Of a stretch of 60,796 nucleotides of DNA, positions 2,485 through 55,011 are shown one piece after another. Both the position numbers and the translations under genes were made by a program. Source of the stretch: a virus (Duplodnaviria; Caudoviricetes). Within the stretch, counting starts at the first letter, position 1. Each line of letters opens with the position of its first letter. The notes below the pieces were generated by a model. That model was not told where the DNA came from. It saw only the letters and a program-made list of their open reading frames with translations, and searched no databases. Where the stretch lies: IMG/VR virus record IMGVR_UViG_3300030450_002344, positions 1-60,796 of that record; one strand, given 5' to 3'.

Positions 2485-2499
2485 TAAAGTCTAGCAAGT

Positions 2500-3136
2500 G
2501 GGAGCCTACCACCGTCAGGTTCCCCCTTACTAGTGAGATTCTTAATCTATCTCCTCTCGTCCTAGGTTAGGAGTCTCACTAGTAAGGTCTTGATAGCATA
2601 TAACGATTGTAGTTTATTAATTTAACAATTATTATTATTAAGACTTTACTATAGTAAGGCTAATAGGAGATGATCTTGACAGCCATAGCTTATTAGACTT
2701 ACTGCCTCATAAGGGTGGACAAGTAACGTGACTTCCTCACACCCCCAAGTTACTTGTACATCCCTATGAGGTACCATAGTTGCTCCTTATTATGGGACCT
2801 CTAACCATGTTGGTGCTAGGTTGGCAGGTAAAAGGTTTAAGCCATTGGCTGAGTATCCTCACCTGTCGGCCTAGTATTATAGTGGTATGTAAAGGCGCGT
2901 TTCCTGTCGGGTGGGTTTATAAGCACCCTATAAACAACGTAAGAGATTGGCATAAGCGATTAGTACAGGAAGCCAGTCCGCCTTACTCTATTAGTTACAA
3001 GTGGATTCAGTAGTTACTATCCGATGGTAAAATGCCTAGCATGACCTCCGTGGATATGACTAAGGGTGAACTCCTTACCTTTGCTGAAGCGTAGTGCACA
3101 CTAAGGGCGCTGAGGCTGCTACTGGATCCACTTGTA
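2500..3136 (+). ncRNA. Large structured ncRNA or array of about 9 back-to-back hairpin/multibranch modules
   Basis: Stems up to 25 bp whose non-Watson-Crick positions are mostly G-U on the + strand; no credible ORF. Confidence 0.8.
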
Positions 3137-3160
3137 TCTAAAAGAATGGGAGGAAGATAC

Positions 3161-3376
3161 ATGCAAATAGGGATTGAAGCACACAATGATATGACTCTAA
3201 TTGAGATCATACAAGCAGTGGAGGATGGCTTTACTGACGGAGGGGTGGAAATTTCCTTAGAGGAGGAAGTATGTAGACATGACATAGAAGCCATGGCTAT
3301 ACAGATATGGAAAGATATGTACGGAGATTTTGAGATTGATGGTTTATACATCGCAGGTGTAAGGGATAGAGAATAA
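3161..3376 (+). CDS. Small acidic hypothetical protein
   Basis: GGAGG SD before ATG 3161; D/E rich. Confidence 0.7.
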   Translation: MQIGIEAHNDMTLIEIIQAVEDGFTDGGVEISLEEEVCRHDIEAMAIQIWKDMYGDFEIDGLYIAGVRDRE

Positions 3377-10075: not shown

Positions 10076-11649
10076 TAGCATCAACCCCAAGAGAATACGG
10101 GTTAGATGAGAATGAATGGTATCCTAATCAGCAAGACTTAGCTCAAAAGATTTTGGACTGGTATGAAACTGATAAACGATTCCTTGTTCTCGTCGCCCCA
10201 ACAGGTACTGGCAAATCTCTATTGTCAGTGGTAGCACAACGAGCGTTAGAGAAACGTACTCATGTTGTGGTATCTACACTTAGGTTGCAGGATCAACTAC
10301 GTTCCTCCTTTTCCTTTGCACCTGTGCTAAAAGGTAGAGATAATTATGAGTGTCTTATTGCAGATGTGGCTGTAACACAAGCACCCTGTCAAGTAGGGTT
10401 TCAATGTGCAGTCAAATCATCATGTGATTACTTCATAGATAGGGAGAGTGCATACGTTTCAGACTTTGCAATCTTTAATTACCCTCTGTATATGTACACG
10501 TCAGAGTTCTCAACAACATTCAAACAGCCTGAACTGCTGTTTTGTGATGAGGCACACTTAGCTAACTTAGAGTTAGAGAAGCATGTGTCTGCTGAGATAT
10601 CTGACCGGGATATAGGCTCAATGTCATGGCGTAGACCACGTAATCTTACGGTGGAAGGTATGTCAGACTGGGCTGCAGAAAATATGCCAGAGATAGAAGA
10701 AGAGCTACAACGTGCTCGATTATGGATTTATGGTATAACTGGTGGGGCTGCTGGAGATAGAATCAAAGGTAGTACAACCGATTATAAACGAGCCATGTCG
10801 AGATACGGTAAGTATCAGAGGCTTGCTCGTAACCTGACCTTGATGATACGAGCCGGTGTAGATTTAGAAAATGGCAAGCCGTGGGTATTTGATAAGATTG
10901 GTTCTGTGTATAAGTTGCGGCCTGTATTCGTAAGGGACTACACAAACTATCTCTTCGGAGATGTACCCAAGGTAGTACTAATGACCGCTACTATGAATCA
11001 CGATGATATTGATAGACTCGGTATAGAGGACTATGATATAATAGAGACAGAGAGTGTCTATGAAGTGAGACGTAGACCTGTTTATTACAGGCCAGTGGGC
11101 AGAATGTCTACTAAGTCTGAGTCTGGTTTAATGCCAGCCATGATAGATGAAATTGATACTATCATTGGTGCGCACATGGCTAGACAACACAAAGGAATTA
11201 TTCACACTGTAAGTTATGCTCGAGCCGAGTTGATTAGAAACAATTCTAAATACAGACGACTCATGATGACACATAGTGCGAGTAATAAAAATGAAATTAT
11301 TCGGGAATTCAAAGAATCGGAGGAGGCTAGTATACTTTTATCGCCCTCTATCTTAGAAGGCGAAGACTTCCCGCATGATGAATGTCGTTACGTCATTATG
11401 CCCAAGGTACCTTACCTGTCTCTTGGGGATAAAGTAGTACGAGAACGGCTCTCTGAAGACCCTGATTGGTACACATGGAAAGCAATTTCAGATATCATTC
11501 AAGGCTCAGGAAGAGGTATGAGGAATGAGAAAGACTTTTGTTCTATCTATATCCTTGACGCAATGTTTGAGGACATAGCTAGGAAACATAAGGCTGACAT
11601 TCCGCAGTGGTTTCTTGAAGCCATCAAGTACCTAGAAATAGATTTGTAA
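10069..11649 (+). CDS. DinG/XPD-like SF2 helicase (probable ATA start)
   Basis: Q-motif WYPNQ, APTGTGKS, Fe-S Cys cluster, DEAH, EGEDFP, QGSGRGMR. Confidence 0.88.
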   Translation: MLVASTPREYGLDENEWYPNQQDLAQKILDWYETDKRFLVLVAPTGTGKSLLSVVAQRALEKRTHVVVSTLRLQDQLRSSFSFAPVLKGRDNYECLIADVAVTQAPCQVGFQCAVKSSCDYFIDRESAYVSDFAIFNYPLYMYTSEFSTTFKQPELLFCDEAHLANLELEKHVSAEISDRDIGSMSWRRPRNLTVEGMSDWAAENMPEIEEELQRARLWIYGITGGAAGDRIKGSTTDYKRAMSRYGKYQRLARNLTLMIRAGVDLENGKPWVFDKIGSVYKLRPVFVRDYTNYLFGDVPKVVLMTATMNHDDIDRLGIEDYDIIETESVYEVRRRPVYYRPVGRMSTKSESGLMPAMIDEIDTIIGAHMARQHKGIIHTVSYARAELIRNNSKYRRLMMTHSASNKNEIIREFKESEEASILLSPSILEGEDFPHDECRYVIMPKVPYLSLGDKVVRERLSEDPDWYTWKAISDIIQGSGRGMRNEKDFCSIYILDAMFEDIARKHKADIPQWFLEAIKYLEIDL

Positions 11650-11670
11650 ATAGATAAGGAAATATATATA

Positions 11671-12219
11671 ATGGCTACAGAAGAAATTGAGGTGTTGGAA
11701 TTGGGTGAAGATCTTCTTGACGCAAACAACGTCTCTGACCGAACGGTCATCTTAGCAGAAATTGCAGGGGAACCTGTGTTTCAAAAGCGAACGATCACTT
11801 ACAACGACAAGGAAACTGGTGAAGAGCGTTCATTCCCTAAAGTGGAATTGAAATGGTCTTACCGCCAGATACACCCTGAAGTTTCGAGTCCTGATCGTGA
11901 CATATACATCAACATTAGTCGAGCGCAAGCTGAAGCGTTGGAAGCAGGTAAGTCTCCATCCATGCATGCCAAGACTGATCTTGGTAGGATAACCAGACAG
12001 TGTTCAGACGCTGGATTGCCGAACCCCGGTAGTTCTGACCTAGTTGGTAAAGTCCTAGTACTTGCATCGTACACTGAGGAATTCCGTGGTCGTACTGAGC
12101 GCAAGTATGATGTGCTAGCAACTGTTGGAAGTGCAGAAGACTTTGACCTTGAGCGTGGCATTGCCATTGTTCAAGACGAAGCTCTTGCATCAAAGCAGCA
12201 AGTATCAGCTAGCTACTAG
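11671..12219 (+). CDS. Putative ssDNA-binding/replication protein
   Basis: Acidic, beta-rich, located in replication module; function inferred from context. Confidence 0.45.
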   Translation: MATEEIEVLELGEDLLDANNVSDRTVILAEIAGEPVFQKRTITYNDKETGEERSFPKVELKWSYRQIHPEVSSPDRDIYINISRAQAEALEAGKSPSMHAKTDLGRITRQCSDAGLPNPGSSDLVGKVLVLASYTEEFRGRTERKYDVLATVGSAEDFDLERGIAIVQDEALASKQQVSASY

Positions 12220-12243
12220 CGAATAACTCCTCCGATTAGGGGG

Positions 12244-12272
12244 TTGCCAAATGTCTGCAGATATGTTATAAT
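12244..12272 (+). promoter_or_regulatory. Sigma70-type promoter
   Basis: TTGCCA-17 nt-TATAAT with TG extended -10. Confidence 0.75.
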
Positions 12273-12284
12273 TATGTGTAGACA

Positions 12285-12448
12285 TATTGGTGACCTCTTT
12301 GGAAGTTATCAAGGATTATTGAGTCTCATACTTACATGATTCCCCAATCATATGAGACAACATTTAAGGTGACGCGAAGGGGGAACTCGCTGAATAAGTC
12401 CTTACGTGCCTAGCACATTCTTGATAGTTTCCAAAGAAGTCATCAATA
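12285..12448 (+). ncRNA. Structured RNA / 5' leader with ~31-bp closing stem and three inner hairpins
   Basis: 12285-12315 pairs with 12418-12448 (G-U rich); inner CCCC and GGGGG loops are complementary. Confidence 0.7.
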
Positions 12449-12457
12449 GGATCAAAT

Positions 12458-13255
12458 ATGAAAACATTATCATACAGTGGCTTATCACTCTTCTCAGAAT
12501 GTCCAGAACGATTTCGACGAGAGAAGATGTCGGATTTGGAACTGGACTACCAAGTCACACAGAATACTGTGCGTGGAACAATCATCCACAAGTTCATGGA
12601 AGACGTTATCAATATATACATCAAGTCTGGAAACTGGCTTGATCAAGATATTGCTATTGAACATATGGAAACAATCTGGAACGAAGGCTTTGATAACGAT
12701 AACGGTGTTAACGTATTAGACACCTGTCCGTGGAACAGTGATTTTCTAGAGAAGTCCATAGAAGATTCAAAGCTACTCGTACCCCAGATGTACGATGAGA
12801 TATTCCCCTACCTAAGTAACCCTATAGCAACTGAACAACATCTTGAGATGAACATCAACAAGAAGTGGAAGCTTCATGGGTACCTTGATTATATGGGGGA
12901 ACCCGCTACAATAATAGACTGGAAGACTAAGACAAGCCCAATGAATGAACGGTGGCTTGACCAAGACTTACAGGCTACAGTATATGCTGCGCTTAGTGCA
13001 TGGGAGAAAGTGTCCGTTCACTTTGTACAGTTTATATTCTTAAAAACAAAAGGCCCACGTATTGTGTGGTCAACAACGAATAGAGATAGGAGGCATACTG
13101 ATTGGTTATTAAATGACATGATACCACAAGTCATTCGGTCACTAGATGAGAAGATTACTCCTCCTACTCCCGGATGGTGGTGTGGCAACTGTCCATTACC
13201 GTGTGATGCATTACCAAATGTGTCAGTGAATGTAGAAAGTTTAACGTATGTATAA
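12458..13255 (+). CDS. Cas4/RecB-like PD-(D/E)XK exonuclease
   Basis: LSYS...ECP, G..IH, GYLD, IIDWKT, Q..VY, C-terminal CGNCPLPC. Confidence 0.88.
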   Translation: MKTLSYSGLSLFSECPERFRREKMSDLELDYQVTQNTVRGTIIHKFMEDVINIYIKSGNWLDQDIAIEHMETIWNEGFDNDNGVNVLDTCPWNSDFLEKSIEDSKLLVPQMYDEIFPYLSNPIATEQHLEMNINKKWKLHGYLDYMGEPATIIDWKTKTSPMNERWLDQDLQATVYAALSAWEKVSVHFVQFIFLKTKGPRIVWSTTNRDRRHTDWLLNDMIPQVIRSLDEKITPPTPGWWCGNCPLPCDALPNVSVNVESLTYV

Positions 13256-14036
13256 AGAAACAATATTAATAGTAGGTCCAGATAGTTCCGGCAAGTCATC
13301 ATCACTGTTGGATATTGCAGACAAGCATCCAGATTCTAAGATCTTTATGATAGATCTAGAAAACAAACTAGGCAAGTTACTTGATGGTTTGTACCCTGAC
13401 CTTGAGATTGAGGTCGAACCGTGCTTGAACTGGGATCAGTTAGCTGATGCTTTCAACAAAGCAAAGCAGACACTAAAGGCTGGTGACTGGCTCATGATAG
13501 ATGGGTTGGATAAAGCATGGGACCTAGTACAAGCAGATTATGAAATGAAAGTCAACGGTATCACACTCTCTAATAGAGTGGAGGAACTACGACTAGGTAC
13601 GTCAGCTCCGGGTATTGACAAGTGGGGTTGGTGTAAAACAAAGCACAACAAAGATTTCTTAGATGTAGCTACGGGCCGTGCACCGTTTCATGTAGCTGCT
13701 ACAGCATGGGCACATCCAGTAGATATAGAGGGTGTAGGTGCTGACAAAGATATAACAGTACGTGAGACCACAGCTATGTGGAAGCAAGCAGGGTTTAAAC
13801 CCGGCGGAGAGAAACGTAATACTCAACGCTTCGATACTGTGTTCGCACTGAATCTAAAGATGGCTCCGGTTAGTTACCAGATAGCCACAATGAAAGACAA
13901 GGTACGTCCGTACCTAGGCAACAACAAGTCTAGTCTTTGGTCTACGTTCGACATTGAACAAGGACTATGGGATACTTATGTACAGGCTTGTGAAGATGTA
14001 AAGGCAAGTGGAGGGCGAGTTATACTACCCGCATAA
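13248..14036 (+). CDS. AAA/RecA-fold ATPase (Sak4-like)
   Basis: Walker A GPDSSGKSS, IDLE, Walker B LMIDG. Confidence 0.75.
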   Translation: MYKETILIVGPDSSGKSSSLLDIADKHPDSKIFMIDLENKLGKLLDGLYPDLEIEVEPCLNWDQLADAFNKAKQTLKAGDWLMIDGLDKAWDLVQADYEMKVNGITLSNRVEELRLGTSAPGIDKWGWCKTKHNKDFLDVATGRAPFHVAATAWAHPVDIEGVGADKDITVRETTAMWKQAGFKPGGEKRNTQRFDTVFALNLKMAPVSYQIATMKDKVRPYLGNNKSSLWSTFDIEQGLWDTYVQACEDVKASGGRVILPA

Positions 14037-31832: not shown

Positions 31833-34800
31833 TTAATCTCTATATCTTGCAAACCTTGGAGTATCACTTGGGTATGAGAAGGTAGGAGAGCGACCATATG
31901 GTGTGAAACTACCTCTACCTCCCAAACCGAGCATTTCCTTAGTTTGATAGATCAATTTTAATGCCTGTACCCACTGTTCAAATGAATAGTTTGTGCCTAC
32001 AGGGAACGTTCTAAACATAGCACGTAACATACGTTCATGGTTACGAGTTAACTTCTGGCTTGGGTTTGTAAAGAAGTTGGTAAGTGCATCTTCAAATGAA
32101 GCATCATGGAATACCATATTGATATGCTTAGATACTTCACTCCATTCAGGTAAGCCACCGACCCCAGAAGTTGTTGGTGCCGCTTGTCTACCACTCGCAG
32201 CAGGTTTAGACCATTTACGAGTAGGCAATGCTACCTTAGTAGGTGTTCTTTCATTTCTCTTACGTCCAGTAGCTATTCCTACTATAGCTGAAAGAGCATC
32301 AATATACTGGAAAGAAGCAATCTTAGCATCTTTATCTGCTACTCCACTTGCACCTGTTAGTCGTAGTAGAGTGGCTACTTCTCTAATGTTTGATAAGTCA
32401 CCATACATTCGACTAATCTGGGGGAACAGACTTTCCCACATATCTTTAATGTCTTCAATATCTGCAACACCGTTTCTTGCAAATGTTTCAAATATAAAAT
32501 CTCCGGGCATAAGGTTCTGTGTCTGCCTGTAATACCGTGAGGCGATAGATGCTTTAATATTTTGGGCCTCTTCAGAAAGTCTAGGGTGTTGTGCTAAATC
32601 ATACAACTGGTACTTTCTACCAATATTCCTCGCATCATCGCTTACTGAAGGGTAACCGCTTTGTGGTTTGCCTCTAATAGTTTGTGGTATACCTGTTACA
32701 TCATCAAATTCAGGTAAATCCATCTCTTCTTCAACAGCAGCTACAACACCTAGTGGCGTTTCTGATTTATCCCTCTCAGCATACATTCGTTTTAAGTGTT
32801 CTGCTTGTTCCCACTTACCAGCGTCTTCTAATTTTTTGATTGATAAAGCTTCTGCAATAATTTTATCTGCGTCCTGTTGAAAGTATTTAAGATATAATTT
32901 GTGTTCATCCAGAGTTGGATCAAGTTTGTTATAAATGTCATAAAGTGATACAAACTTCATAAGTTCTTTGACTTCTAAAGCTGCCTTAAACTCTTCAAGT
33001 GTTTCTGCGTCATAGATTCCAAGTTGCTGGTTTGGTGCCATAAAGTGATACTGTTCATCCCACGGAGCAGCTTGATCAAGGTCGGTTTGTAACCGTGTTA
33101 CCTTCTCATCCCATGCACCATTCTTCATGTCCATATATGTAATGTTCTTTACATCACCAAGTCTTTCTGTTATGTGTTTTACAAGGTCAGATTGTGTATA
33201 CTCATTACGTTCCATCCAAACTTTGCCATACTCGTTGGTCTCCAACCAGTCCATAACACCTTCAACTGTAGGTGGCTTCCACATATCTATAGTAGTTTGT
33301 ACTGAATTTGCCATAGAAGCTACATCTCTAAGCTCACCTTCGTAGATTCCGTTAATCTCTGTTTGTATCTCTCTCATAACAGATTCAATAGCTTTGTCTA
33401 CTATTTGTGGCATACTTGCCGATGAAGCTTCTACTATTTTGTATAGACGGAATTGCTCAGGATCTTTAGCTTCCATCGCAGTTTCCCACTCTTCTACTTC
33501 TTTAAGATATTGGCCCCAGTTGACAATGTTTGTTGTCCTACCATCCTTAGCCACCACAGAGAACTCATCTTTTCTAGCAGTAAATTCTTCTGAGAATAAT
33601 GTAGGAGCTGTCTTACGCTTGTCTTCTCGCATAAGTTCAACAAAGCTCTCAAGCTGCCATGCGTTAAACATGTCTACACTTATAAACCTTGGGTCGTATC
33701 TAACTCCAGTTTTTTCATACTTCCAGTCAGACATGTCTTGTAGAACTTGCTCAACATCTTCTCGTTTTATCTCACGGTACTCACCATCAACGAACAAGGT
33801 GTCCATCACTTCTTCAACTTTGTGTACTCCTGCCATAGGATCATCCGCAAACAATGTCATGAACCATTCATCTTTGATAAGTTTATCGCGTGTCAGTTGC
33901 CTCCATAGTTGCGTAGAACCGAATGAAGTTTTATCCATAATGTGATTCGGGTCAATAGGTACACCACCGACCTCTTCAGGAGATAGACCTACGTTTACAC
34001 CTGTTGTTTCAAATATACGTAACTTAGCTTCTTTAAGTTGTTCATTCTTTCGGTTGTTAACAGTCTCTAAATCTCTAAAGAAGGTCTCATCCATTGCAGG
34101 AGGATCTTGTATTTCAAGTCCAAACTCACTAAGGTTTGGTCTATCTTCACTTCTACCACTTGGTATTGAAGGACGTTCACCGGGAATTGCAGCTATACCT
34201 GCATCGTACTCGGCATTTATATCTTCGGCAACCTGATAGAACATACTCGAAGCTTGTGCACGGTTAATTGCGTTATGTTCAAACTTCTTATTATTCAACC
34301 AGTTTCTTGCCCAAGGTGTTCCCTCAAAGAACTCAGAGTACTTTTTACTCTTTTGTGCTTCAGTTAAAGACCTACTTCTTACAATATCATAGTAGTTATT
34401 CATAACATCCGCAGGATATACTTTTTTACCAGTGGAAGGATCTAAAGTATATTCACGTCCCGGTTTGAAAGAAAACCCTAATAGAAGAGAAGATGAATCT
34501 TGTATACCACGCCTAGAACCTGCCGCCCTTTCCATATCATTATGTACTTGGTTAAGAACAGACATGTCTACTTTCTTACCTGTAATAGGGTCAATAAGTT
34601 CTGCCTCTGGGTCTAGCTTATGTCCAAATATTTTTTGACCAGTATCCCCTATTGTGTGCAATAACGGAATATTTATCACGTTATTCTGTTTTTGACGACT
34701 CCATGCATCCCAAGCAAGAAGAAGCAAATACAACTTCTCATTTGTTTCAGGGTTCGGGTCAGGTGATTGTACCTGTACTTCTCTACCATTCTCATCAATT

Positions 34801-37800
34801 GTAACTGTGTAGTTATTCATTATAGCTGCGTGAGCTGCGTTCATATATGCATAATCAATTTCTCGAATATCTCTGTTTGTTCGGATAAGTTGCGTTGTAC
34901 TAAAAGCTCCCGTAAGACCTGCTGTTACACTCATCGCTGTATCTATAGGACGAGTAAATGAACCAATAGTCTTTTCAAGCTTATCAACGTTCTCACCATA
35001 TTGACCAGTAACAGTCATAGCGGTTGTAATAGCTGGATTAAGTGGTAGCTTAAGCATACCAGAGTACACTTCAGCCATCTTACCTAACCGACTAAAGTCA
35101 TCCATAGCATTTAATGGATCTTCACCAGCTCTAATTCTTCCTCTACCTGATGGGTAGTAATCAAACATGTCATTCCAGAAGAGTACTGCATCAACATTAA
35201 GAGATGCTCCATCTGAGTATTTTTCTGCTACAGAAACCCATCCGCCGGGATCTATGCCAAGCGACTTGGACAAACTAAAGAATGGTTGTAGTGCCTGACC
35301 AATTGGTATATCACGTTGCGCCCATTTTGAGGAACCTAAGTCTCTATTTACATCTCGTATAGATTGTAGGTACTGTGTAACCCTATTTAGTAGCTTTGGG
35401 TTATCCATGAGTGTCATAGCTGTCTTACCAGCTGTACGTGTTTGCCAAATATGCCACGGACCAAGCCACCTAATGAGGTAATCAAGATTACTTGTATTGC
35501 TGTAATCATGTAGAATCCAGTCAGCCTGTGCCTGTGCAAGTTTAGCAGAAGTTCTACGCAGTTGATTAGTCTGTACTTCTAACTCATCCATTAGCGTTCG
35601 TAGTTTGGTTACATCTTCTCTTGATATGACTCTAGCTGGACCATCATCAACAGGTGTGTATGGTTTAGTTCTATCTGCATATGCAGCAGCACGATCTCTT
35701 ATATCACTTACAGCCATACGCTGTTGTGCTCTAGCTTTTTCAAATACTTTCTGCTCTCTAACAAACAGATCAAGAATTTCGTCTCGTGATGTATTAGGTC
35801 GTCCATATATAGGCCAACCTTTATCCCACTGGTCCATCATATAGTTTGAAAGATTTTTAAGAGCACGTCTACGTACAGCTATTTCGTAAGCTAGATTATC
35901 TTTAGTTTTTCGCCTTCTGAACCATGCTATAAACCCTTTATAAACATCTGAGTCTTGATCTTTCAAGTCAGCAATCTCATCAAGAACCTCTTTTAGTTCT
36001 TTTTGTGCAAATTCAGGAGTCATTCTTCGGTTGGTTTGTAATCCTGCTGAACCTGACCATGATACTTGGAAACCTGTCCAGTTCTCAGTACCACGCGATT
36101 CTTGTCGATACTTCCAACCAATCTTCTCGTTATCTTTTTTCAGTCTATCTCGATATTCTGCAAGACGCTTAATACCAGCTTCAATTTCTGCCTCATTAGC
36201 ATCTTTTCTTACAAAAACTGCAAGACGGTTCATAGCCAGCTCACCACTTTGATTCCACGAATCGTCTGTAATAAGGGGAACATACCCATCAGGTGCTTGT
36301 TGCATAGGAACACGCCCATGAACACCTTGTGGTGGGAATTGATCTAGTACAGTACCGTCTGTTCTAGTCTGTGGGTCCATACCAAAGTTCATTGGGAGTA
36401 CTGCTTCATCTCCACTAAATTTTATATGCTTTCCTTCTACAGGATCTGGTAATGTCCATGTGTAATTAGGGTCACTCTTAGCTTTACTTATTGCACGTTG
36501 GGCCGGACCAAATGTACGAGAACGAGTAATATCCTCAGTCTGTCCTCTAGGAATTATCATACGCATAAGAGGTATGCTAAAAGTTCTCCCCTTTGCAGAC
36601 GGTCTTCCAAGAAGACTTTCTAATTGTAGTCTTTTTTCAGGATTAAAGGCATTTTCACGAACATCTTCAAAGTTATTACGACGGGGCATCCCTCGGTAAT
36701 TAATATCTTTACCAAGATCAAACTCTCGTGTCTTATGCATTGGGTCAATCGCTTCTATTTGATCTGCAAAATCATCAAGTAAGTCCGCGTCTAACTCTGT
36801 GTCAAGATATAAACCACTCCAAGCTCTTGCCTCTGCTTCTTTATACTTGCTTAAATTATCTATGAAAGCACCAAGACTATCACTTACAGGTTCTCTTCCG
36901 GGTAGGAAAGGAACTTGATCGAAGGCTTCTGTTGTTCCTCCTGCTGTGTAATCATCATCGAGTTTTCTTTGCCACTTCCGTAAAAAGCCCAATACAGGAA
37001 CTTTTTCTAATAAGATACGATCAAATGCATGTTGACCTTGATCATGCCAAACATCCATACCAGCTTCATCTGCACGACTTATCCCATGCTTACGTCGTAA
37101 GTCTGTTGATTTTGGTTCTAATCCAAGTGCGCTACGAACTTCATTTAATCGATTAATACTATCCTCTATATAAGAATCTTTACCTTGTAGTCTTTTTTGT
37201 ATTGCATCAAGTAGTTTTTCTTTAGCTCTTCTAGCATCTTGTCTAGAATAAACAGATCTAGGACGTGTGTTTCCCCCTGCATTAGATAAGAACTGTTCTG
37301 TTAATACACGTATATCTTCGATGGCTTTTTTAGAAGATTCATTTAAGCTCTTTGCAAGCTCATCAATTTGATCTCTAGTATTTCTTTTAGCAAATGCTCT
37401 TTCTGTTACAGCATCTGCTAGTGTACCTAATTCCTCTCCAAGCTCATTTGCTTTTTCAATTAACTCTTTCTCACTAAGTGGTGGCCTCGTCGGATTCGGT
37501 TCTATTGTTACAAATTTACTCTTTGTTGCAGTACGTTTTGGTTGGAAGAATGTACCATCGTCAATACGTCGTTGTATCGCCATGTTTACATCAGCATTGC
37601 TAAAGGTCATTTTAGCATTTTTAGTAAAGTATTTATTACGGATAAATTGTGCATCTAGTAATTTAGTATCTGAACCGTTAAATAAAATATCCATCAGTGT
37701 TTCATCAATAAGTTTTTCTTTTACAATATCGTCAGCTGTTGCAAAATCTATGCCCTTAATACGGTCATCGAGACGTTCTTTTAGCTGCTTAGTAGGTATC

Positions 37801-40800
37801 GCACCGACGTTGACTTTTGACCCCTGACTTATACTCTCTGCTCGGAATTCTCCAAGAAGTTTTTCTGCGTTAAATGCAGCAAGTTCTATTGCATTTTCCT
37901 CAAAATCAGGATTAATAGCATTATCAATAAATCTTTGGCCCTCAAACGGTTCTCGTGCTTCATCAATTAGACTCTGTATCTCGTTGAATCCAAGCATCTC
38001 ATCGCCATTTTGTATTTGCTCAAACATACTTGCACGTTGTGTAGGGGGAACAAAGTTAAGCATCTCTTCTTCATCAACTGTTCCTAGTTCTCTTAGTCTC
38101 CTTACAAACTCAAAACGCTCACTTCTGTATGTTTCCTTATCTGTCATGATTGTGATAAGGTAATTCTTCTGCTCTTCCATAGCTCGAAGAGGCTTAATGA
38201 GTTCAAGCATAATTTCTTGTGTAGCATCATGGGCAGCTTTGATTGTCTCTTCACTAACAGGCCCAGTGCCGTTATGTAAGTAACCTTTTATTGCATCAAA
38301 CAATCCTTCTTGCTCTTGAGTTCCCCCAAAAAGAGTGAGAATATTTGTAAGTAAGTCATTAGTATCTGGATCTGTAACCCCAATTAGTGTATGATCTTCT
38401 CCAGCAGCTTTACGTGCCTTTCGTAGTACACTTGGATTTGTATCATATGTTACGTCAATACCTGCTTCCATTGCGTCTTCTCGAAGTTCACGAAGAATGT
38501 TGTCATACTCTTCTTTCAAAGTATTCCTAATAAGTTCTGCTGCCTGAAGATTTGGGTCAGTTATAACTTGTACAGTACCATCAGGTAGAACTTTTTCTAC
38601 TGCTCTATGATCAGGGGTATGGTATTTAACACCATCAAGTATTCTATTTATAAGGTCATCTACTTTTGCATCTTCTAGCGCATTAGCGTGAAAACCTAGT
38701 GAACGTATATATGTACGTGCGCTCTGTCTCATTTCTAAGAACGCTTCTCCTGTGTCCGTAACACCTTCTACAATATTAATAACATCATCTAAGTTTAGAG
38801 TTCCCGGTGATTGAACAGCTTCTACCATTGTTTTCCACAATGTGCCATCACCATCTTTAAGGATTTCTATTGATTCTGGACTAATTTGTCTAACTAAGTT
38901 TTCAATTTGATCTTCAGAAGATAATAATCTATACCATCTGTAAGAAGCCGAGTCAATGATGCGCATACGGTCTACAGATTCTGCATAACCTGAAAGCTGT
39001 CGTGCGTACACAAAAGGTAAACCACCACCAATAAGGGCAACACCACCACCCTTAGCTCTAGTAAGTAGTTTTTTCCAACCTTCTCTTTTTTGTACGTTTT
39101 CGTCGGCACCACCGAACATAATTTTCCATGATTTCATAACACCTCTTACGGGTGCAAGTGCTGCCACGTCTACATCAAGCGATGCTCTGGTATGTCCCTT
39201 TACGGCAAGATCCACATCTCCCCAAACACTCTGCCACTGCTTGTCTCGTGCTCTAAGCATATCTCCTCTAGCCATACCATCCATGAGCATTAAGGTTTTG
39301 TTTGTTACCCAGTTTCGCACAGCAAATGCAGGTCGCTCTAAGAATAATTTAGATGTCCAACTATTAATAGCATTTTGTAAGCCAAGTGCTTCACCTGCTT
39401 TTTCATCCAAACCATACCGCTTAAGCATTACATTTTGTGTTTCAAGTTTTACTTCTTCATTAAATCGTGACCACCACTCAGCTGGTGTAAGACCATCAGG
39501 GTCTATATCAGATGGATCGAGACCATTTTTGAGGGAAGGAACCTTATCTAAATCGATATCCTTTAGAATATCCAGTGCTTTACCAGTTTCAGCATGTAAC
39601 TGTGAGCTTATTTTTTTACTCTGTAGCATCATTAAATATGCCATAGGGTCATCTGCTTTACCGACTCTTTTTATTTCCTCAAGTAACTCTCTAACTATAT
39701 TTGCATGATCATGCGACAGAGTTTTTTGGAATCTCGGACCCCAAGCACCAAGCATGGAGCTAAGTTCGTTCATTGTTGTGTAAATATTAGACACCATTCG
39801 GTCTCGTGTAGCGCCCTCTGTTGTTGCACTAAATGCTTTATTTCGTAGCCAACGTGTAGCTTTGAACGCACTATATGTTGATCGCTCTGGCTCTTGTACA
39901 ACATGTTTCAAATCTTCGGGACCAAACTTATTTACTGCACGAAACTCATCAATATTCATTGAAGCAAGTTTTTCAGCTTTGCTCATTGCTTTAGTAATCT
40001 TAAAGAAATCTTTTATGCTGCCGCCAGTATCTATATATTGATCTGCGCGTAATATTGCTTTACCAATATCGTCATAGCCTTTAACTATAAGTTCATCAGT
40101 TGGAGAGTATCTTAGAGCGTCCTCTATTTCATCAGCTAATTTAGTTAATTGGTTAGCTTCATCACCAAACTCAGAGACCTTAGTTGGGAGGGAACCAGCG
40201 TCCACAGTAAGTTTCCCTCTTAAATTTTGTCCTACTCTACCAAGGAAAGTATCAGAAACTTCAACAAGTTCACCTACATCAACTTGTCTTTGTTCTTGTT
40301 TTCTAGTCAGTTGTTTGGGTTTAAAGATTTCTTGGGGACGGCGAAGGGGAATTTTATCGATTCTTCTACGCGCTTTAGGGTCTACGATAACTGCTTGATC
40401 AGCTCTGGTTACGTCACCCATTTGTGCTTTTGAACTAATAAAGTCTTGTTGTGTCTCAGGAGTAAATTTTGGATCCTTTTTAATAACTGGGACTACACCT
40501 AGTTCATCTATTGCTTCTGCCTGTAAATTATCCATAGCATGTGCTTTTTGGCGTAGTGCACTCACAATTGTCTCAGCACTTTTTCTATCAGTTAAATTAA
40601 TACGACCTGTTTCTACAACAGCACGGATAAGTCCGTTCTGAGTAGCACCAGAAACTCTTGACATTCGAGCACCTTTTACAGCCGCTGTGACACCTACTTG
40701 AGCACCTTTTGCTCCTATACCACCGAATACATCAAATAGGTTGAATGTACCGTAAGCAAAACCAGCCCGCATACGTTCACCCATCCCCATTGCTTCGGAA

Positions 40801-43109
40801 AGTGCTTCGTTCACGGAGTATATTCTATTTCCATTGTCGTCTTTTAAGTCGTATATAGAGATAAACTCAGCAGCATTAGCAAGGTACCACTGACCACCCT
40901 CGTCTAACTCATAAGACATAAGGCCACCAATAGCATCTTCTATCTCGTTCTTTTCATCTTCGCCAAGACCCATATAAATTCTTGTAAGATTCTTCCTGAT
41001 AGCACCACCTTCTCTAGAATCTTCACGTCTCATACTATTACGAATAGTAGAGTATGCAGTTAGTGGACTAACATTCTTTAACTCAGGAAATTCATCCATG
41101 TACGATTTATATGTGTACTTTCCAATATATTTGTCTTGAAATGCCTCACCAGTAAACTCGATTTGCTCCCAACTAGGTCCGAATTCGTTAGCTCCAGAAC
41201 CTTTAATGTTTGCTCTACTTAGTAAGTTCCTAGTGACTTCGTATGTTCCCCCTATTCCAAGCCAAATAGCGGCAAATGTTTTTTGTTCACCAACCGTCAA
41301 TCCTTTCATCAAATTTGTAAAAGGCTCTAGAGTAGGGTTATTCTTTGCAATTTCGTCCCAATCTTCAGCACTCTTCAAAGTTATACCAGAAAGTATTCCA
41401 AGGTCAGTTCTACCAGCTTGTTTATAGGGGTCATCTTCTAATGACCAGCCCGTTTCTGCGGAGGGGTCTATTAATACTTTTTCAGCAATACCATCTACGA
41501 CGTATTCATCAGCAGCAATAAGAGCACCCATGGCATCACCACCAATACCGAATGCTTTACTTAAACCCTTTTGGAACCAGTTACGTCTATCTACTGTCTG
41601 CAACCCTTGACTCAATAAGAACTCATTAGAGATGTTGTCTGTAATTGGAGCGCCGTCAAGAGGCAATGCCTCTGAGGGAGGCCATTCATCGCCAGCCCGG
41701 ATACGCTCATCACGTACTCTATTAATCCATTTAAGGAGATTTAATTCATCTTCTGCTTTCTCATCTGCAGCTTGTGCCGCCTTTGATAATGAACCAGATA
41801 ACCCTGTTTGTGCACCTTGAGTAATGGCTGCTCGTAAACTATTCTGTTGCGAAGTGGATAATCCTAAGTGTGTCCACATGTCTTCTACTTGAGTAGCTAT
41901 ACCACTCATACCTAGATTCGATGAGTACGGATTTATATCAGAAGGGGTTACCATAAGCGCACGTAAGAATGTATCTGCATCCAAGCCTCTAAGTGCGCCT
42001 ATACGCTTCATTGCTACTAAGTCAGACGGCTCGATAGAAAGTAAGTAAAAGTTCTCTTCTTTAGAACCAAAGTCTTGTAAAGAACTTAAAACATGTTTAC
42101 GTGCTTCAAGTAAATCATTTTCTTCTATTACTGCTTCGTTACCAAACTTACTAAATGCATCCGCAACAATGTTTAAAGTTTCAACACGATAAAAAGGTGT
42201 CTTTGAAAGACTTATATCTTCATCTGTAATATACCTAGAGAAAGCCGAACGTAGCGCCTCTATACTACCATCATTATTCAGCTGATCATCAAGTGCCTTA
42301 GCAAACCTAGGCTCTAAGTTTGACAGATCCTTTGGAATTTGAATAGGTTCTTTGGTTGTCGTAACAGCAGCTTTATCTTTAATTATTTTGTACTGTCTAT
42401 AAAATTGTTGGAGGTCTTTACCAGCTTTAGCATCATTAATAGTATAGTCAAGCATAGCAGAGAATATTTCTGCCTCACCTTCTTCACTACCCATTCGGCT
42501 TCTAACGAAGTAACGTGCTTCTGGATGGTCTATGCGCTCTACCTCAGCTGTAACTATTCCTAAGAACTGACTTTTTATATCTTCTCCTAGAAACTCATAA
42601 GCATTTTTAGCGAGTTCTTGTGCAACATCTTTTCCTGTGCGATTTTTGGTCTCATTCGCCCATTTTCTTCGAGCAACACCATCAGTGTATGCTTCTTTAG
42701 TACCTGTAATAATTCCTGTAAGATTTTCACCTACCTCAAAGTTGGATTCCTTTGTGTAGTAGTTAAAGTTAGAATCTACTTGCTTAAGTGCCTCGTCTAC
42801 CTCATTCGTAACGAAGGAATCAACACCATACTTATCATATCGAAGAGAAGTTCCTGTGTTTTCTTCAGGAAGTTCATGACTTGGAATAAGTGTTTCCGTT
42901 GTTAGACTATCTGTAGTTTCTACAAAATCTGGTTTAACACTTTCTGTAAGGGGGTCAGCAGTTGCTAACTGACTTTCAGCACCAAGTTCAGTTGTACTGC
43001 TAGTTGGACTAGTAGTACGTATCTTTTCCATCATCTTTTTAGATTGTTCTGGAGTGGCTTTACCAGAACCTAGTTCACCTAACCAACCGTCTATTTCTTC
43101 AATTGACAT
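31833..43109 (-). CDS. Giant 3758-aa internal virion/DNA ejection protein
   Basis: Uninterrupted helical-looking ORF between portal and scaffold; no catalytic motif recognised. Confidence 0.8.
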   Translation of the reverse strand: MSIEEIDGWLGELGSGKATPEQSKKMMEKIRTTSPTSSTTELGAESQLATADPLTESVKPDFVETTDSLTTETLIPSHELPEENTGTSLRYDKYGVDSFVTNEVDEALKQVDSNFNYYTKESNFEVGENLTGIITGTKEAYTDGVARRKWANETKNRTGKDVAQELAKNAYEFLGEDIKSQFLGIVTAEVERIDHPEARYFVRSRMGSEEGEAEIFSAMLDYTINDAKAGKDLQQFYRQYKIIKDKAAVTTTKEPIQIPKDLSNLEPRFAKALDDQLNNDGSIEALRSAFSRYITDEDISLSKTPFYRVETLNIVADAFSKFGNEAVIEENDLLEARKHVLSSLQDFGSKEENFYLLSIEPSDLVAMKRIGALRGLDADTFLRALMVTPSDINPYSSNLGMSGIATQVEDMWTHLGLSTSQQNSLRAAITQGAQTGLSGSLSKAAQAADEKAEDELNLLKWINRVRDERIRAGDEWPPSEALPLDGAPITDNISNEFLLSQGLQTVDRRNWFQKGLSKAFGIGGDAMGALIAADEYVVDGIAEKVLIDPSAETGWSLEDDPYKQAGRTDLGILSGITLKSAEDWDEIAKNNPTLEPFTNLMKGLTVGEQKTFAAIWLGIGGTYEVTRNLLSRANIKGSGANEFGPSWEQIEFTGEAFQDKYIGKYTYKSYMDEFPELKNVSPLTAYSTIRNSMRREDSREGGAIRKNLTRIYMGLGEDEKNEIEDAIGGLMSYELDEGGQWYLANAAEFISIYDLKDDNGNRIYSVNEALSEAMGMGERMRAGFAYGTFNLFDVFGGIGAKGAQVGVTAAVKGARMSRVSGATQNGLIRAVVETGRINLTDRKSAETIVSALRQKAHAMDNLQAEAIDELGVVPVIKKDPKFTPETQQDFISSKAQMGDVTRADQAVIVDPKARRRIDKIPLRRPQEIFKPKQLTRKQEQRQVDVGELVEVSDTFLGRVGQNLRGKLTVDAGSLPTKVSEFGDEANQLTKLADEIEDALRYSPTDELIVKGYDDIGKAILRADQYIDTGGSIKDFFKITKAMSKAEKLASMNIDEFRAVNKFGPEDLKHVVQEPERSTYSAFKATRWLRNKAFSATTEGATRDRMVSNIYTTMNELSSMLGAWGPRFQKTLSHDHANIVRELLEEIKRVGKADDPMAYLMMLQSKKISSQLHAETGKALDILKDIDLDKVPSLKNGLDPSDIDPDGLTPAEWWSRFNEEVKLETQNVMLKRYGLDEKAGEALGLQNAINSWTSKLFLERPAFAVRNWVTNKTLMLMDGMARGDMLRARDKQWQSVWGDVDLAVKGHTRASLDVDVAALAPVRGVMKSWKIMFGGADENVQKREGWKKLLTRAKGGGVALIGGGLPFVYARQLSGYAESVDRMRIIDSASYRWYRLLSSEDQIENLVRQISPESIEILKDGDGTLWKTMVEAVQSPGTLNLDDVINIVEGVTDTGEAFLEMRQSARTYIRSLGFHANALEDAKVDDLINRILDGVKYHTPDHRAVEKVLPDGTVQVITDPNLQAAELIRNTLKEEYDNILRELREDAMEAGIDVTYDTNPSVLRKARKAAGEDHTLIGVTDPDTNDLLTNILTLFGGTQEQEGLFDAIKGYLHNGTGPVSEETIKAAHDATQEIMLELIKPLRAMEEQKNYLITIMTDKETYRSERFEFVRRLRELGTVDEEEMLNFVPPTQRASMFEQIQNGDEMLGFNEIQSLIDEAREPFEGQRFIDNAINPDFEENAIELAAFNAEKLLGEFRAESISQGSKVNVGAIPTKQLKERLDDRIKGIDFATADDIVKEKLIDETLMDILFNGSDTKLLDAQFIRNKYFTKNAKMTFSNADVNMAIQRRIDDGTFFQPKRTATKSKFVTIEPNPTRPPLSEKELIEKANELGEELGTLADAVTERAFAKRNTRDQIDELAKSLNESSKKAIEDIRVLTEQFLSNAGGNTRPRSVYSRQDARRAKEKLLDAIQKRLQGKDSYIEDSINRLNEVRSALGLEPKSTDLRRKHGISRADEAGMDVWHDQGQHAFDRILLEKVPVLGFLRKWQRKLDDDYTAGGTTEAFDQVPFLPGREPVSDSLGAFIDNLSKYKEAEARAWSGLYLDTELDADLLDDFADQIEAIDPMHKTREFDLGKDINYRGMPRRNNFEDVRENAFNPEKRLQLESLLGRPSAKGRTFSIPLMRMIIPRGQTEDITRSRTFGPAQRAISKAKSDPNYTWTLPDPVEGKHIKFSGDEAVLPMNFGMDPQTRTDGTVLDQFPPQGVHGRVPMQQAPDGYVPLITDDSWNQSGELAMNRLAVFVRKDANEAEIEAGIKRLAEYRDRLKKDNEKIGWKYRQESRGTENWTGFQVSWSGSAGLQTNRRMTPEFAQKELKEVLDEIADLKDQDSDVYKGFIAWFRRRKTKDNLAYEIAVRRRALKNLSNYMMDQWDKGWPIYGRPNTSRDEILDLFVREQKVFEKARAQQRMAVSDIRDRAAAYADRTKPYTPVDDGPARVISREDVTKLRTLMDELEVQTNQLRRTSAKLAQAQADWILHDYSNTSNLDYLIRWLGPWHIWQTRTAGKTAMTLMDNPKLLNRVTQYLQSIRDVNRDLGSSKWAQRDIPIGQALQPFFSLSKSLGIDPGGWVSVAEKYSDGASLNVDAVLFWNDMFDYYPSGRGRIRAGEDPLNAMDDFSRLGKMAEVYSGMLKLPLNPAITTAMTVTGQYGENVDKLEKTIGSFTRPIDTAMSVTAGLTGAFSTTQLIRTNRDIREIDYAYMNAAHAAIMNNYTVTIDENGREVQVQSPDPNPETNEKLYLLLLAWDAWSRQKQNNVINIPLLHTIGDTGQKIFGHKLDPEAELIDPITGKKVDMSVLNQVHNDMERAAGSRRGIQDSSSLLLGFSFKPGREYTLDPSTGKKVYPADVMNNYYDIVRSRSLTEAQKSKKYSEFFEGTPWARNWLNNKKFEHNAINRAQASSMFYQVAEDINAEYDAGIAAIPGERPSIPSGRSEDRPNLSEFGLEIQDPPAMDETFFRDLETVNNRKNEQLKEAKLRIFETTGVNVGLSPEEVGGVPIDPNHIMDKTSFGSTQLWRQLTRDKLIKDEWFMTLFADDPMAGVHKVEEVMDTLFVDGEYREIKREDVEQVLQDMSDWKYEKTGVRYDPRFISVDMFNAWQLESFVELMREDKRKTAPTLFSEEFTARKDEFSVVAKDGRTTNIVNWGQYLKEVEEWETAMEAKDPEQFRLYKIVEASSASMPQIVDKAIESVMREIQTEINGIYEGELRDVASMANSVQTTIDMWKPPTVEGVMDWLETNEYGKVWMERNEYTQSDLVKHITERLGDVKNITYMDMKNGAWDEKVTRLQTDLDQAAPWDEQYHFMAPNQQLGIYDAETLEEFKAALEVKELMKFVSLYDIYNKLDPTLDEHKLYLKYFQQDADKIIAEALSIKKLEDAGKWEQAEHLKRMYAERDKSETPLGVVAAVEEEMDLPEFDDVTGIPQTIRGKPQSGYPSVSDDARNIGRKYQLYDLAQHPRLSEEAQNIKASIASRYYRQTQNLMPGDFIFETFARNGVADIEDIKDMWESLFPQISRMYGDLSNIREVATLLRLTGASGVADKDAKIASFQYIDALSAIVGIATGRKRNERTPTKVALPTRKWSKPAASGRQAAPTTSGVGGLPEWSEVSKHINMVFHDASFEDALTNFFTNPSQKLTRNHERMLRAMFRTFPVGTNYSFEQWVQALKLIYQTKEMLGLGGRGSFTPYGRSPTFSYPSDTPRFARYRD

Positions 43110-51738: not shown

Positions 51739-51749
51739 TTTGTTATAAT
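51721..51749 (+). promoter_or_regulatory. Consensus sigma70 promoter
   Basis: TTGACA-17 nt-TATAAT with TG. Confidence 0.85.
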
Positions 51750-54935: not shown

Positions 54936-55011
54936 CGCGGGGTGGAGCAGTGGTAGCTCGTCAGGTTCATTGTCTGAAGGTCGTCAGGTTCGATTCCGGC
55001 CCCCGCTACCA
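54936..55011 (+). tRNA. tRNA-fMet (CAT), atypical anticodon loop and T-stem
   Basis: CGCGGGG/CCCCGCT acceptor with unpaired C1, GAGC/GCTC D-stem, TTCGATT T-loop, encoded CCA. Confidence 0.88.

Follow-up and report, generated by a model that had tools for sequence, protein, structure and literature searches.

Locus and gene context

The stretch of DNA analysed here (60,796 nucleotides, hereafter the window) comes from an uncultured marine phage with a 60.8-kb genome, which carries a T4-type large terminase and a family A DNA polymerase. At 12.3 kb, within the replication and recombination module, an element of about 170 bases lies between a promoter and the gene of a PD-(D/E)XK exonuclease. 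The features of this region are as follows.

12229–12243, plus strand: small hairpin CCUCC-GAUUA-GGGGG, 10 nt past the stop of ORF 11671–12219 and just 5' of the −35 hexamer
12244–12272, plus strand: sigma-70-type promoter TTGCCA-17-TATAAT with an extended −10 (TGn), consensus score 11/12
12279–12280, plus strand: predicted transcription start, from promoter geometry (about 7 nt past the −10)
12285–12316, plus strand: 5' arm of the closing helix (inverted repeat I1; MFE and centroid folds)
12323–12358, plus strand: hairpin H1, 8 + 5 bp with a 6-nt bulge and an apical loop with UUCCCC (12340–12345), from the fold and RNAalifold
12365–12404, plus strand: hairpin H2, UAAGG...CCUUA with an inner GCGA/UCGC stem and the loop AGGGGGAAC with GGGGAA (12380–12385), from the sequence
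12406–12416, plus strand: hairpin H3, GUGC-CUA-GCAC, from the fold
12417–12448, plus strand: 3' arm of the closing helix (inverted repeat I1), its final base being the first base of AGGA
12448–12460, plus strand: AGGA (12448–12451), 6-nt spacer and ATG (12458–12460), from the sequence
12458–13255, plus strand: PD-(D/E)XK exonuclease gene (PF12705, E 2.3e-18; exonuclease in PHROGs)

The promoter, already claimed in an earlier note made from the sequence alone, was confirmed at this place and, with its TG before the −10, is the best of 14 promoter-like sites in the scanned region (11000–14000); other operon starts of the same genome also carry sigma-70-like sites. Only about 5 unpaired nt separate the predicted start from the closing helix, which begins about 13 nt downstream of the −10 hexamer. 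In a single consensus scan nothing resembling a terminator turned up between 12272 and 12458, so the element is, as judged from these signals, the 5' leader of the nuclease operon mRNA, contiguous with the message, rather than the discrete transcript ("~165-nt RNA") that the note had described. The sole terminator-like site downstream on the plus strand is weak and intragenic (13914–13933).

The nuclease gene leads a recombination operon and is followed by genes for a Sak4-like AAA_24 protein and an ERCC4-HhH nuclease (the next genes match PF13479, PF02732 and HhH, and PHROGs describes the one after the nuclease as Sak4-like). The nuclease alignment holds four invariant cysteines, C15 (nearly so), C242, C245 and C249, which may be the ligands of a Cas4-type Fe-S cluster. 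Two 90% clusters of the nuclease comprise 127 and 139 sequences. Pfam matches among the eight neighbouring ORFs were to helicase, nuclease, AAA_24, ERCC4 and DUF932, with no recombinase and no RNA-binding domain in the neighbouring proteins, and neither an RNase III gene nor a TROVE (Ro60) gene was found in the phage.

Of the 14 related loci listed, 12 carry the element ahead of the nuclease gene, as does the further locus L027. These loci represent seven distinct sequences in two clades that are about 80% alike in DNA, that of the window and a second one (the 75% clade), in which the −35 TTGCCA is unchanged, the −10 reads TACTAT or TACAAT with TGn, and the spacer has diverged. Two other loci (L019 and L020), with nuclease homologues of 49–52% identity, have no such element; a consensus promoter likewise precedes their nuclease gene, TTGACA-17-TATAAT or TATACT standing 7 nt ahead of the ATG. 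Since the element is absent from these relatives of about 50% identity, the nuclease does not need it.

Fold, conservation and distribution of the element

A separate search of the window for short-range inverted repeats ranked the arms of the closing helix first in length (I1), and the same 31-bp helix appears in both the MFE and the centroid fold. This bears out the stem of 31 bp proposed in the earlier note: over 31 positions there are 26 Watson-Crick pairs, 4 G-U pairs and 1 mismatch, and counting 32 positions gives 27 Watson-Crick pairs, 4 G-U pairs and 1 C·A mismatch (12295/12438). Between the mismatch and the junction, an uninterrupted duplex of 21–22 bp is found in all seven distinct sequences. 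The stem also ends at the Shine-Dalgarno sequence as claimed, the last paired base, A12448, opening AGGA. The 75% clade has no purine-rich site at the helix foot, where the sequence is CCAATTAAAAATTTATG.

The folding energy of the element (MFE −58.9 kcal/mol) is far below that of 200 dinucleotide shuffles (−36.6 ± 4.1; z −5.39), none of which folded as well. Locus L004, from the second clade, gave a z of −6.59 against its shuffles, and in the genome just 3 intergenic stretches out of 22 reach this degree of structure. In the alignment, 96.8% of cells are paired in the closing helix and 96.1% in the whole structure, compared with 40–46% when the 3' partners are slid. Of the 32 pairs of the closing helix, 21 are invariant, 6 show one-side changes (GC/GU/AU) and 3 two-side changes, while the remaining 2 have unpaired cells because the one mismatch moves by one position. 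Covariation in relatives, which the earlier note had named as a check, was found: by pair count 3 pairs of the closing helix are compensatory, and RNAalifold gives 5 pairs changed on both sides; H1 and H2 do not vary. These counts are based on two clades, in effect one deep split, and with this covariation method related sequences may beat shuffles even without structure.

The strand is indicated by the mismatches themselves. Read on the plus strand, each of the seven sequences has exactly 1 mismatch and 3–5 G-U pairs in the helix; read on the minus strand, the same columns hold 4–6 mismatches. The neighbouring genes are all on the plus strand, and promoter, gene orientation and G-U asymmetry, all of them sequence signals, point to that strand for the predicted transcript. 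Given the shuffle z, the recurrence among loci, the compensatory changes and the strand asymmetry of the mismatches, the element is, on comparative grounds, a real plus-strand RNA structure. The leader overall is no better conserved than the neighbouring genes: its identity in 60-nt bins is 0.75, 0.78, 0.93 and 0.63, compared with roughly 0.7–0.95 in the flanks.

The three inner hairpins described in the earlier note are present at 12323–12358, 12365–12404 and 12406–12416 and form a four-way junction with the closing helix. The H1 stem is nearly invariant, and variation is confined to its loop (UUCCCC, UCCCC or UACCC); RNAalifold adds three basal pairs, one of which shows a U-A to C-G change. 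H2 is identical at 40 of 40 nt in all seven sequences, set in flanking DNA that is about 80% alike, and the apical pairing that RNAfold prefers for it differs slightly from GCGA/UCGC. As H1 and H2 do not vary, their inner pairing is unproven by covariation. H3 has a different sequence in the 75% clade and forms only a weak hairpin there (82% of cells paired). A 25-codon ORF across the hairpins (ATG at 12337 to TAG at 12410–12412) was rejected as a gene, as a 1-nt loop deletion frameshifts it in the 75% clade.

The loops of H1 and H2 had been proposed to kiss, and in the window's clade UUCCCC and GGGGAA are indeed complementary over 6 nt; a simple simulation puts the chance of at least 6 complementary bases among loops of such sizes at about 0.003. 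The second clade does not maintain this. By distinct sequence (n = 7), the complementarity is 6 nt in two, those of the window's clade, 5 nt in one and 3 nt in four, all five of the second clade, and the GGGGAA partner loop is invariant, so that there is no loop covariation. The loss of complementarity that the note itself had named as telling against kissing is therefore partly seen, and with just 3–5 nt available in the second clade, without compensation, the kissing or pRNA-like idea is weak.

Motif scans for relatives found the element in these two clades only. Model R1 matched one locus per genome and had no match in L019, L020 or L006–L010. The exact H2 20-mer occurs in 6 viral contigs, all of the same two clades, and a gapped H2 pattern has 8 viral matches, the 6 known ones plus L036 and L037, which look chance-like by eye. 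Its 18 bacterial and archaeal matches are about the number expected by chance in 596 Gb (a rough estimate, none of the matches having been inspected). The H1 16-mer has 18 viral matches, of which 12 are new and 0 of those 12 fit model R1. Searches with blastn and tblastn against 50,697 phage records gave nothing for the locus or the nuclease, and the large terminase (TerL) has at most 33% identity to any deposited phage. The Infernal/Rfam check named in the earlier note yielded no family for the element: cmscan of the whole window at gathering scores found tRNA-Met only, and for 12150–12550 with E up to 10 it found seven weak matches, none of them pRNA or a riboswitch. These are eukaryotic or viral families, scored 12–20 bits against cut-offs of 45–150 bits, and were all rejected.

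A second leader, at 2987–3145 in the early region, has a similar build, with a 27-bp helix (2987–3013 with 3119–3145) that encloses three hairpins, ends 3 nt before GGGAGG and has been retained by the other clade. In the window's version, the outer pairs of this helix extend over the ribosome-binding site. No promoter adjoins the leader. The two leaders were rejected as paralogues, as their pairwise alignment is unconvincing and model R1 does not match the second; they share a TGCCTAGCA hairpin, of which the window has two copies, a number that 8 of 100 shuffles reach too. Judged by sequence, they are presumably analogues, not homologues.

Possible roles of the leader

The element is most likely a processing or stability signal of the nuclease message, not a free-standing RNA machine. 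More closely, we give about even odds to a static element of RNase III type, serving processing or stability and built around a four-way-junction core whose sequence is constrained. Among the three identities offered by the earlier note, the RNase III-controlled leader fits best, with its position from promoter to start codon, the lack of a terminator-like site in the scan and a 31–32-bp duplex kept by covariation. The nuclease-associated RNA is argued against by the element-free homologues at 49–52% identity (L019, L020), and the new ncRNA, taken as a pRNA-like oligomerising RNA, is weak on account of the missing Rfam match, the four-way junction, the position in the module, the T4-type terminase and loops that are not maintained.

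Under the RNase III reading, host RNA polymerase would initiate at about 12279–12280 at the conserved sigma-70-type promoter, and the transcript would enter the 31–32-bp helix within about 5 nt, the opposite strand of which ends at the ribosome-binding site. With a single mismatch over such a length, the duplex looks too stable to rearrange, so the leader is probably a fixed structure, not a switch. The minimal RNase III substrate is about 22 bp, the threshold lying at about two helical turns, and the helix, with 31–32 pairs, one mismatch and 21–22 unbroken pairs beside the junction in all seven sequences, is of that order. A duplex of at least two helical turns would thus be a substrate for RNase III, and as the phage has no such gene, the host enzyme would have to act. 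Cleavage may then trim the leader and free the ribosome-binding region from the helix foot, fix where the nuclease message begins and how long it lasts, and liberate a junction core of about 100–130 nt. Uncut, or before cleavage, the 5'-proximal helix could shield the message from 5'-end-dependent decay. The near-invariant H1–H2 core is probably held by an intramolecular tertiary loop-loop contact or by a bound protein. No Shine-Dalgarno sequence stands at the helix foot in the 75% clade, so unmasking of that sequence cannot be the general mechanism.

Several points stand against the RNase III reading, among them the two-clade base of the covariation and an overall conservation of the leader no higher than that of its neighbours. 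The near-invariance of H1 and H2 exceeds what a mere processing stem needs, and the mismatch and 3–5 G-U pairs could equally have been selected for resistance to RNase III.

The R sites of the T7 early region, which are single irregular hairpins, and the lambda N leader are known RNase III processing signals, and the 5'-terminal stem-loops of the ompA leader, SP82 and ermC, all short hairpins, are known stabilisers. The element shares with the former a long, mostly Watson-Crick, static duplex before the first gene of an operon, and with the latter a helix that starts a few nt from the 5' end. It differs from the RNase III signals, which have no Rfam family, in lacking sequence similarity to them and in that its helix encloses a conserved 100-nt four-way junction, like the stems flanking rRNAs; its cleavage is a prediction. 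It differs from the stabilisers in that its helix is far from a short hairpin; about 5 nt would stay unpaired at the 5' end, and any stabilising effect is likewise a prediction. RNase III control of leaders is established for rnc and pnp and for the metY-nusA-infB operon, where, according to PMC3997798, the cut releases a tRNA and starts decay of the downstream mRNA. If the present leader is processed, it would share with metY-nusA-infB the freeing of a folded RNA module from an mRNA 5' end. The two leaders of the window together suggest that long processing helices shape messages in this lineage, as RNase III sites do in T7.

The expression of uncultured marine phages is known almost only through open reading frames, and the element adds an RNA structure that is conserved, sharply bounded and provided with an evident promoter, ahead of a recombination operon. 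Viral metagenomes have yielded a catalogue of over ten thousand candidate structured RNAs, with IMG/VR v3 among the references (PMC10690425). As far as they are described there, these candidates are the same kind of object, namely conserved cis-leader structures in uncultivated phages; in the main text of that source the words nuclease, exonuclease, RNase III and kissing are absent.

A stable small RNA is an unlikely alternative in which the junction core, either alone or together with some of the helix, would be excised or accumulate and act in trans, either kissing like phi29 pRNA or bound to protein. Phi29-like genomes are small. Their pRNA, as set out in PMC5066667, has 174 nt, a helix A, a three-way junction and CE and D loops that pair between molecules, and is a discrete transcript (bp 147–320 of a phi29-like genome). 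Like pRNA, the element is of phage origin, measures about 170 nt, pairs its 5' and 3' ends in a helix, and has a multi-helix junction and two mutually complementary loops. It differs in being the leader of an mRNA, in its place at 12.3 kb in a genome of 60.8 kb that has a conventional, T4-type large terminase, in its four-way instead of three-way junction, and in having neither an Rfam match, pRNA included, nor covariation of the loop complementarity. The low chance of 6-nt complementary loops in the window's clade favours a small RNA, and two intermolecular G-C loop pairs suffice for pRNA self-association (PMC5066667), so that even three G-C pairs might be enough; the complementarity is, however, down to 5 nt in one and 3 nt in four of the five second-clade sequences, and two hairpins that neighbour each other in one junction would more readily make contact within the molecule. 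GOLLD and ROOL, as presented in bioRxiv 10.1101/2024.12.08.627333, are phage-borne RNAs that multimerise through kissing loops, and the 40 nt of H2 and most of H1 are invariant despite about 20% DNA divergence between the clades. Against this stand the lack of a terminator-like site in the scan, which leaves the RNA contiguous with the nuclease mRNA, the single copy per genome and its absence from the nuclease-bearing relatives of about 50% identity. Another RNA of comparable outline is YrlA, one of the Y RNAs of bacteria and phages that are bound by Ro60/Rsr; the element shares its long stem of 5' and 3' ends and multi-hairpin module but has no Rfam match, no TROVE gene in the phage and no status as a discrete gene. 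The same invariance of H1 and H2, beyond what pairing requires, would suit a translational operator, in which the helix presents the core to a phage protein (the nuclease, the Sak4-like protein or the upstream ORF product) that represses or times translation of the operon. The element directly precedes the operon's leading gene, viral-metagenome candidates commonly include gp32-type autoregulatory leaders (PMC10690425), and P0016, the upstream ORF product, has a weak DUF669 lead (atlas score 0.90, the family being on 18% of cluster members). A core placed 31 bp, or about 85 Å, from the start codon nevertheless offers poor geometry for steric repression, the neighbouring proteins have no RNA-binding domain in Pfam, and an operator, too, is rated as improbable. 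DUF669 proteins bind single-stranded DNA. A bolder and still more doubtful reading takes the helix as an rRNA-type processing stem that would free the invariant core and so give the phage a stable small RNA of about 100–130 nt, whose C-rich and G-rich loops would dock within or between molecules and which would act in trans, on a factor of the host or the phage, as replication becomes recombination-dependent, with 2987–3145 as another member. If this were true, a new class of helix-caged phage RNAs, carved from mRNA leaders, would emerge, and a caged core that is a stable RNA with its own partner would add a phage RNA class; if not, the element would be one more leader structure, worthy of an Rfam entry yet unsurprising.

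Three further readings have lower probabilities. The put RNA of HK022 has two hairpins in about 70 nt and lets the polymerase on which it acts pass terminators, and a put-like processive antitermination RNA, binding the transcribing polymerase and conferring terminator resistance downstream, would suit a static, sequence-constrained structure that starts about 5 nt past the predicted start behind a conserved promoter. It is highly improbable here, as the element is far larger than put, its 31-bp closing helix has no counterpart there, the one plus-strand terminator-like site downstream (13914–13933) is weak and lies inside a gene, and the 2987–3145 leader of the same build lacks an adjoining promoter. 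A DNA-level element, that is, an invertible segment, a MITE-like insertion or a replication origin, is scarcely plausible, even though 32-bp arms flank a 100-bp segment within the replication and recombination module, and the absence of the segment from relatives of about 50% identity, in which promoter and gene adjoin directly, gives it the look of an insertion. The arm differences are all G-U-compatible on the plus strand only and inter-clade changes preserve RNA pairing; the inner segment has a single orientation in the window and in all 13 element-bearing loci, occurs once per genome and is placed by the motif scans in two clades only (6/6, 6/8 and 6/18 matches); no recombinase was found by Pfam among the eight neighbouring ORFs, and GC skew tracks gene orientation, with no inflection at 12.3 kb that would mark an origin. 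Least credible is a riboswitch or RNA thermometer for the nuclease operon. The purine riboswitch aptamer has a comparable junction with loop-loop docking, and a multi-stem junction with possible loop docking in a 5' leader recalls it, but there is no Rfam riboswitch match even with E up to 10, neither an alternative pairing nor an expression platform is plausible given a 31–32-bp helix shared by the MFE and centroid folds, no terminator-like site was found by the scan between helix and gene, and nothing is sequestered in the 75% clade.

Transcript contigs and the upstream hairpin

Transcript data came from four marine metatranscriptome runs (X1–X4) of one study, with at most two samples, which hold 22–35% of the sampled words of 11000–14000. 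Contigs from the flanks include 11303–12253 (X2), 11666–12253 (X3), 11314–12118 (X1) and 12435–12828 (X1). Positions 12254–12434 are uncovered by contigs of X1–X4, and the pieces listed explain all of the depth in the bins; these are assemblies and not reads, and a gap in them is no finding. Two contigs of one sample end 10 nt past the small hairpin, and another contig starts within the 3' arm at 3 nt from the mismatch. These ends would fit termination and cleavage, and are not counted as evidence, strain polymorphism at 12258–12261 being able to break assemblies and DNA carry-over being possible in the contigs.

The small hairpin at 12229–12243 was not called by the terminator scan, only two U following it. 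Its five pairs are preserved in all seven distinct sequences, with one pair changed on both sides (C-G to U-A) and a U·G retained, which together fit a plus-strand RNA. It is probably the 3' hairpin or a weak terminator of the upstream transcript.

The leader of the nuclease operon and its surroundings

The window is a complete IMG/VR virus record (60,796 bp). The phage is marine and uncultured, and nothing closely related has been deposited: its TerL shares no more than 33% identity with that of any deposited phage, and searches of the locus and its nuclease against deposited phages gave no match. All genes surrounding the element, a structured RNA stretch within the 238-nt gap between a 182-aa ORF and the nuclease gene, lie on the plus strand:

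near the element, +, family A DNA polymerase and DUF932 protein
10153-11649, +, SF2 helicase
11671-12219, +, ORF of 182 aa (P0016), no Pfam or PHROG family
12244-12272, +, promoter TTGCCA-17-TATAAT with TGn (score 11/12)
12285-12316 and 12417-12448, +, arms of the closing helix
12323-12358, +, hairpin H1
12365-12404, +, hairpin H2
12406-12416, +, hairpin H3
12458-13255, +, PD-(D/E)XK exonuclease, followed by a Sak4-like AAA_24 protein and an ERCC4-HhH nuclease

The promoter, the arms, the three hairpins, and the end of the helix at AGGA were all located as the earlier note had described them; the helix closes at the initial A of AGGA, a motif 6 nt ahead of the nuclease ATG. The 178-nt element stretch has a minimum free energy (MFE) of -58.9 kcal/mol, against -36.6 +/- 4.1 in shuffled sequences (z -5.39, 0/200). 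A survey of 22 intergenic stretches of the genome gave three outliers, namely the element (z -6.6) and two adjoining stretches of the early region (z -10.0 and -7.7), with the rest between -3.0 and +1.3.

Directly upstream, P0016 is among the best-kept stretches between the two clades compared below (60-nt bins, 0.93-0.98). The closest named cluster of the atlas (score 0.90) has DUF669 on just 18% of its members, which is a lead only. Its gene has the top contig depth of the examined region in RNA-library contigs, a measure that cannot rank genes.

Further near-consensus sigma-70-like sites (11-12 of 12 matches) sit where transcription units begin, and occur on both sides of a divergent region near 50 kb:

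51721-51749, +, 12/12
31829-31801, -
20003-19975, -
50479-50451, -

Judging from these sites, the phage appears to rely on the host polymerase for several operons; as their leaders are short, that of the nuclease operon is the exception. Virion RNA polymerase of phage N4 is a giant protein carried in the virion. A single minus-strand ORF of 3758 aa (31833-43109), matching no Pfam or PHROG family, is reminiscent of it in size, and nothing in the window supports the likeness.

Conservation and origin of the leader

Searches started from the nuclease protein and from its aligned homologues gave 14 informative loci. The element is present in 12 of these, and in the additional locus L027, in identical position and orientation: four loci fall in the window's clade, with nucleases 96-100% identical, and eight in a second clade (74-76%), two of which (L003 and L017) are one contig. 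Together, they hold seven distinct leader sequences. DNA identity between the clades is about 80% over neighbouring genes, and 93% in the 60-nt bin 12338-12397.

Standard pairs fill 96.1% of all cells across the seven sequences, a share that drops to 40-46% if the 3' partners are displaced by 1-3 columns. Among the 32 pairs of the closing helix, 21 are invariant, six change on one side (G-C, G-U, A-U), and three on both, while the single mismatch shifts by one position among sequences. RNAalifold returns the same fold and counts five pairs in which both bases differ, one of which lies at the base of H1. In effect, this covariation reflects a single deep split between two clades, and so few independent events. 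Read on the plus strand, every one of the seven sequences contains 3-5 G-U pairs and a single mismatch; the minus-strand reading of the closing-helix columns gives 4-6 mismatches. Combined with the promoter and the direction of the genes, this asymmetry fixes the strand as plus and favours RNA over DNA.

There is almost no variation in H1 or H2 (H2 is invariant over its full 40 nt), and the sequence of H3 is not conserved. At the level of the alignment, the near-invariance of H1 and H2 shows sequence constraint and yields no test of their pairing. The kissing loops proposed in the earlier note hold as a 6-nt complementarity in the window's clade, between UUCCCC in H1 and GGGGAA in H2 (chance about 0.003 in a simple simulation). 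The H1 loop of the second clade is UCCCC (one sequence, 5 nt complementary) or UACCC (four sequences, 3 nt), with the H2 loop unchanged in every sequence, so that covariation lends the contact no support. A contact between these loops is possible, and, as H1 and H2 are neighbours on one junction, contact within one molecule is the simpler reading.

The element was not found in loci L019 and L020 (nuclease 49-52% identical), where a consensus promoter, TTGACA-17-TATAAT or TATACT, lies 7 nt before the nuclease ATG (about 1800-1850 and about 2950-3003, respectively), and where the operon message would be of the leaderless type. The presence of a promoter before the nuclease operon is, thus, old, and one lineage has gained the leader, which also indicates that the nuclease has no need of this RNA.

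Candidate roles of the element

Several readings fit poorly. The element is not coding, since its only inner ORF (25 codons) suffers a frameshift in the second clade. Nor is it a repeat or mobile element, as each genome has a single copy, in one orientation and with no copies elsewhere, and the lack of a GC-skew turning point at the element speaks against a replication origin. A switch is unlikely, given that the 31-32 bp helix is common to the MFE and centroid folds and that no terminator-like site was found before the nuclease gene. The element resembles phi29 pRNA in size, end-to-end helix, and complementary loops only, and fails those pRNA membership tests that gave a clear outcome. Neither an RNase III gene nor a Ro60 gene was found in the phage. 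The Infernal/Rfam check suggested in the earlier note matched no family, and the element is in no curated RNA family. The more than ten thousand candidates listed in the supplements of PMC10690425 may already include it; the words nuclease, exonuclease, RNase III, and kissing do not occur in the main text.

The most likely function of the element is that of an RNase III-type processing or stability leader, RNase III control being one of the roles put forward in the earlier note. The closing helix contains 21-22 uninterrupted pairs, and a duplex of this kind is a classical RNase III substrate. Leader cleavage by this enzyme regulates the rnc and pnp messages and, in metY-nusA-infB, frees a folded RNA at the operon's 5' end, as described in PMC3997798. 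The long duplex and these known cases lead us to propose that, in a leader of fixed structure transcribed by the host polymerase from the conserved promoter, host RNase III would cut the closing helix. Such a cut would define the 5' end of the recombination-operon message, along with its stability and translatability, and would set the junction core free. The simple version, in which cleavage unmasks the ribosome-binding site, is at odds with the second clade, where the foot of the helix lacks a purine-rich site. So little variation in the core suggests that it does more than fill the helix: it may adopt a tertiary fold, bind a protein, or have an independent existence once released.

The positions just before the nuclease ATG (12448-12457) carry AGGA in the window's clade and only A/U (CCAATTAAAAATTTATG) in the second (L003-L005, L014-L018); start-site recognition, thus, differs among close relatives.

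A second leader and other non-coding regions

Element 2, a leader of like build, closes a 680-nt, extremely structured non-coding early region (2485-3165; MFE -263.7 kcal/mol, z -10.2, 20 shuffles):

2525-2587, hairpin of 25 bp
2705-2771, hairpin of 26 bp
around 2805-2890, stem of about 20 bp
2987-3013 and 3119-3145, element 2, a 27-bp helix enclosing three hairpins and ending 3 nt before the GGGAGG of ORF 3146/3161-3376

In the window, this GGGAGG ribosome-binding site is covered by outer pairs. Comparison gave no homology between the two elements. Three parts of the region recur in the second clade: the opening 60 nt, the stem at about 2805-2890, and element 2, the arms and second hairpin of which are retained at 86-88% identity. 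Two U-A to C-G changes, one in the outer helix and one in that hairpin, were read from the alignment, and the first inner hairpin has an insertion of about 100 nt in that clade. A closing helix kept while the interior changes in size fits the helix as the working part.

About 2 kb at the record ends (58898-60796 and 1-134) hold no ORF of at least 60 aa, include AT-rich overlapping palindromes (59111-59154), and fold mildly better than shuffles (z -3.0 and -2.6); they could contain genome ends, an origin, or early promoters. One tRNA-Met (CAT) gene lies at 54936-55011, among the plus-strand genes of the right arm.
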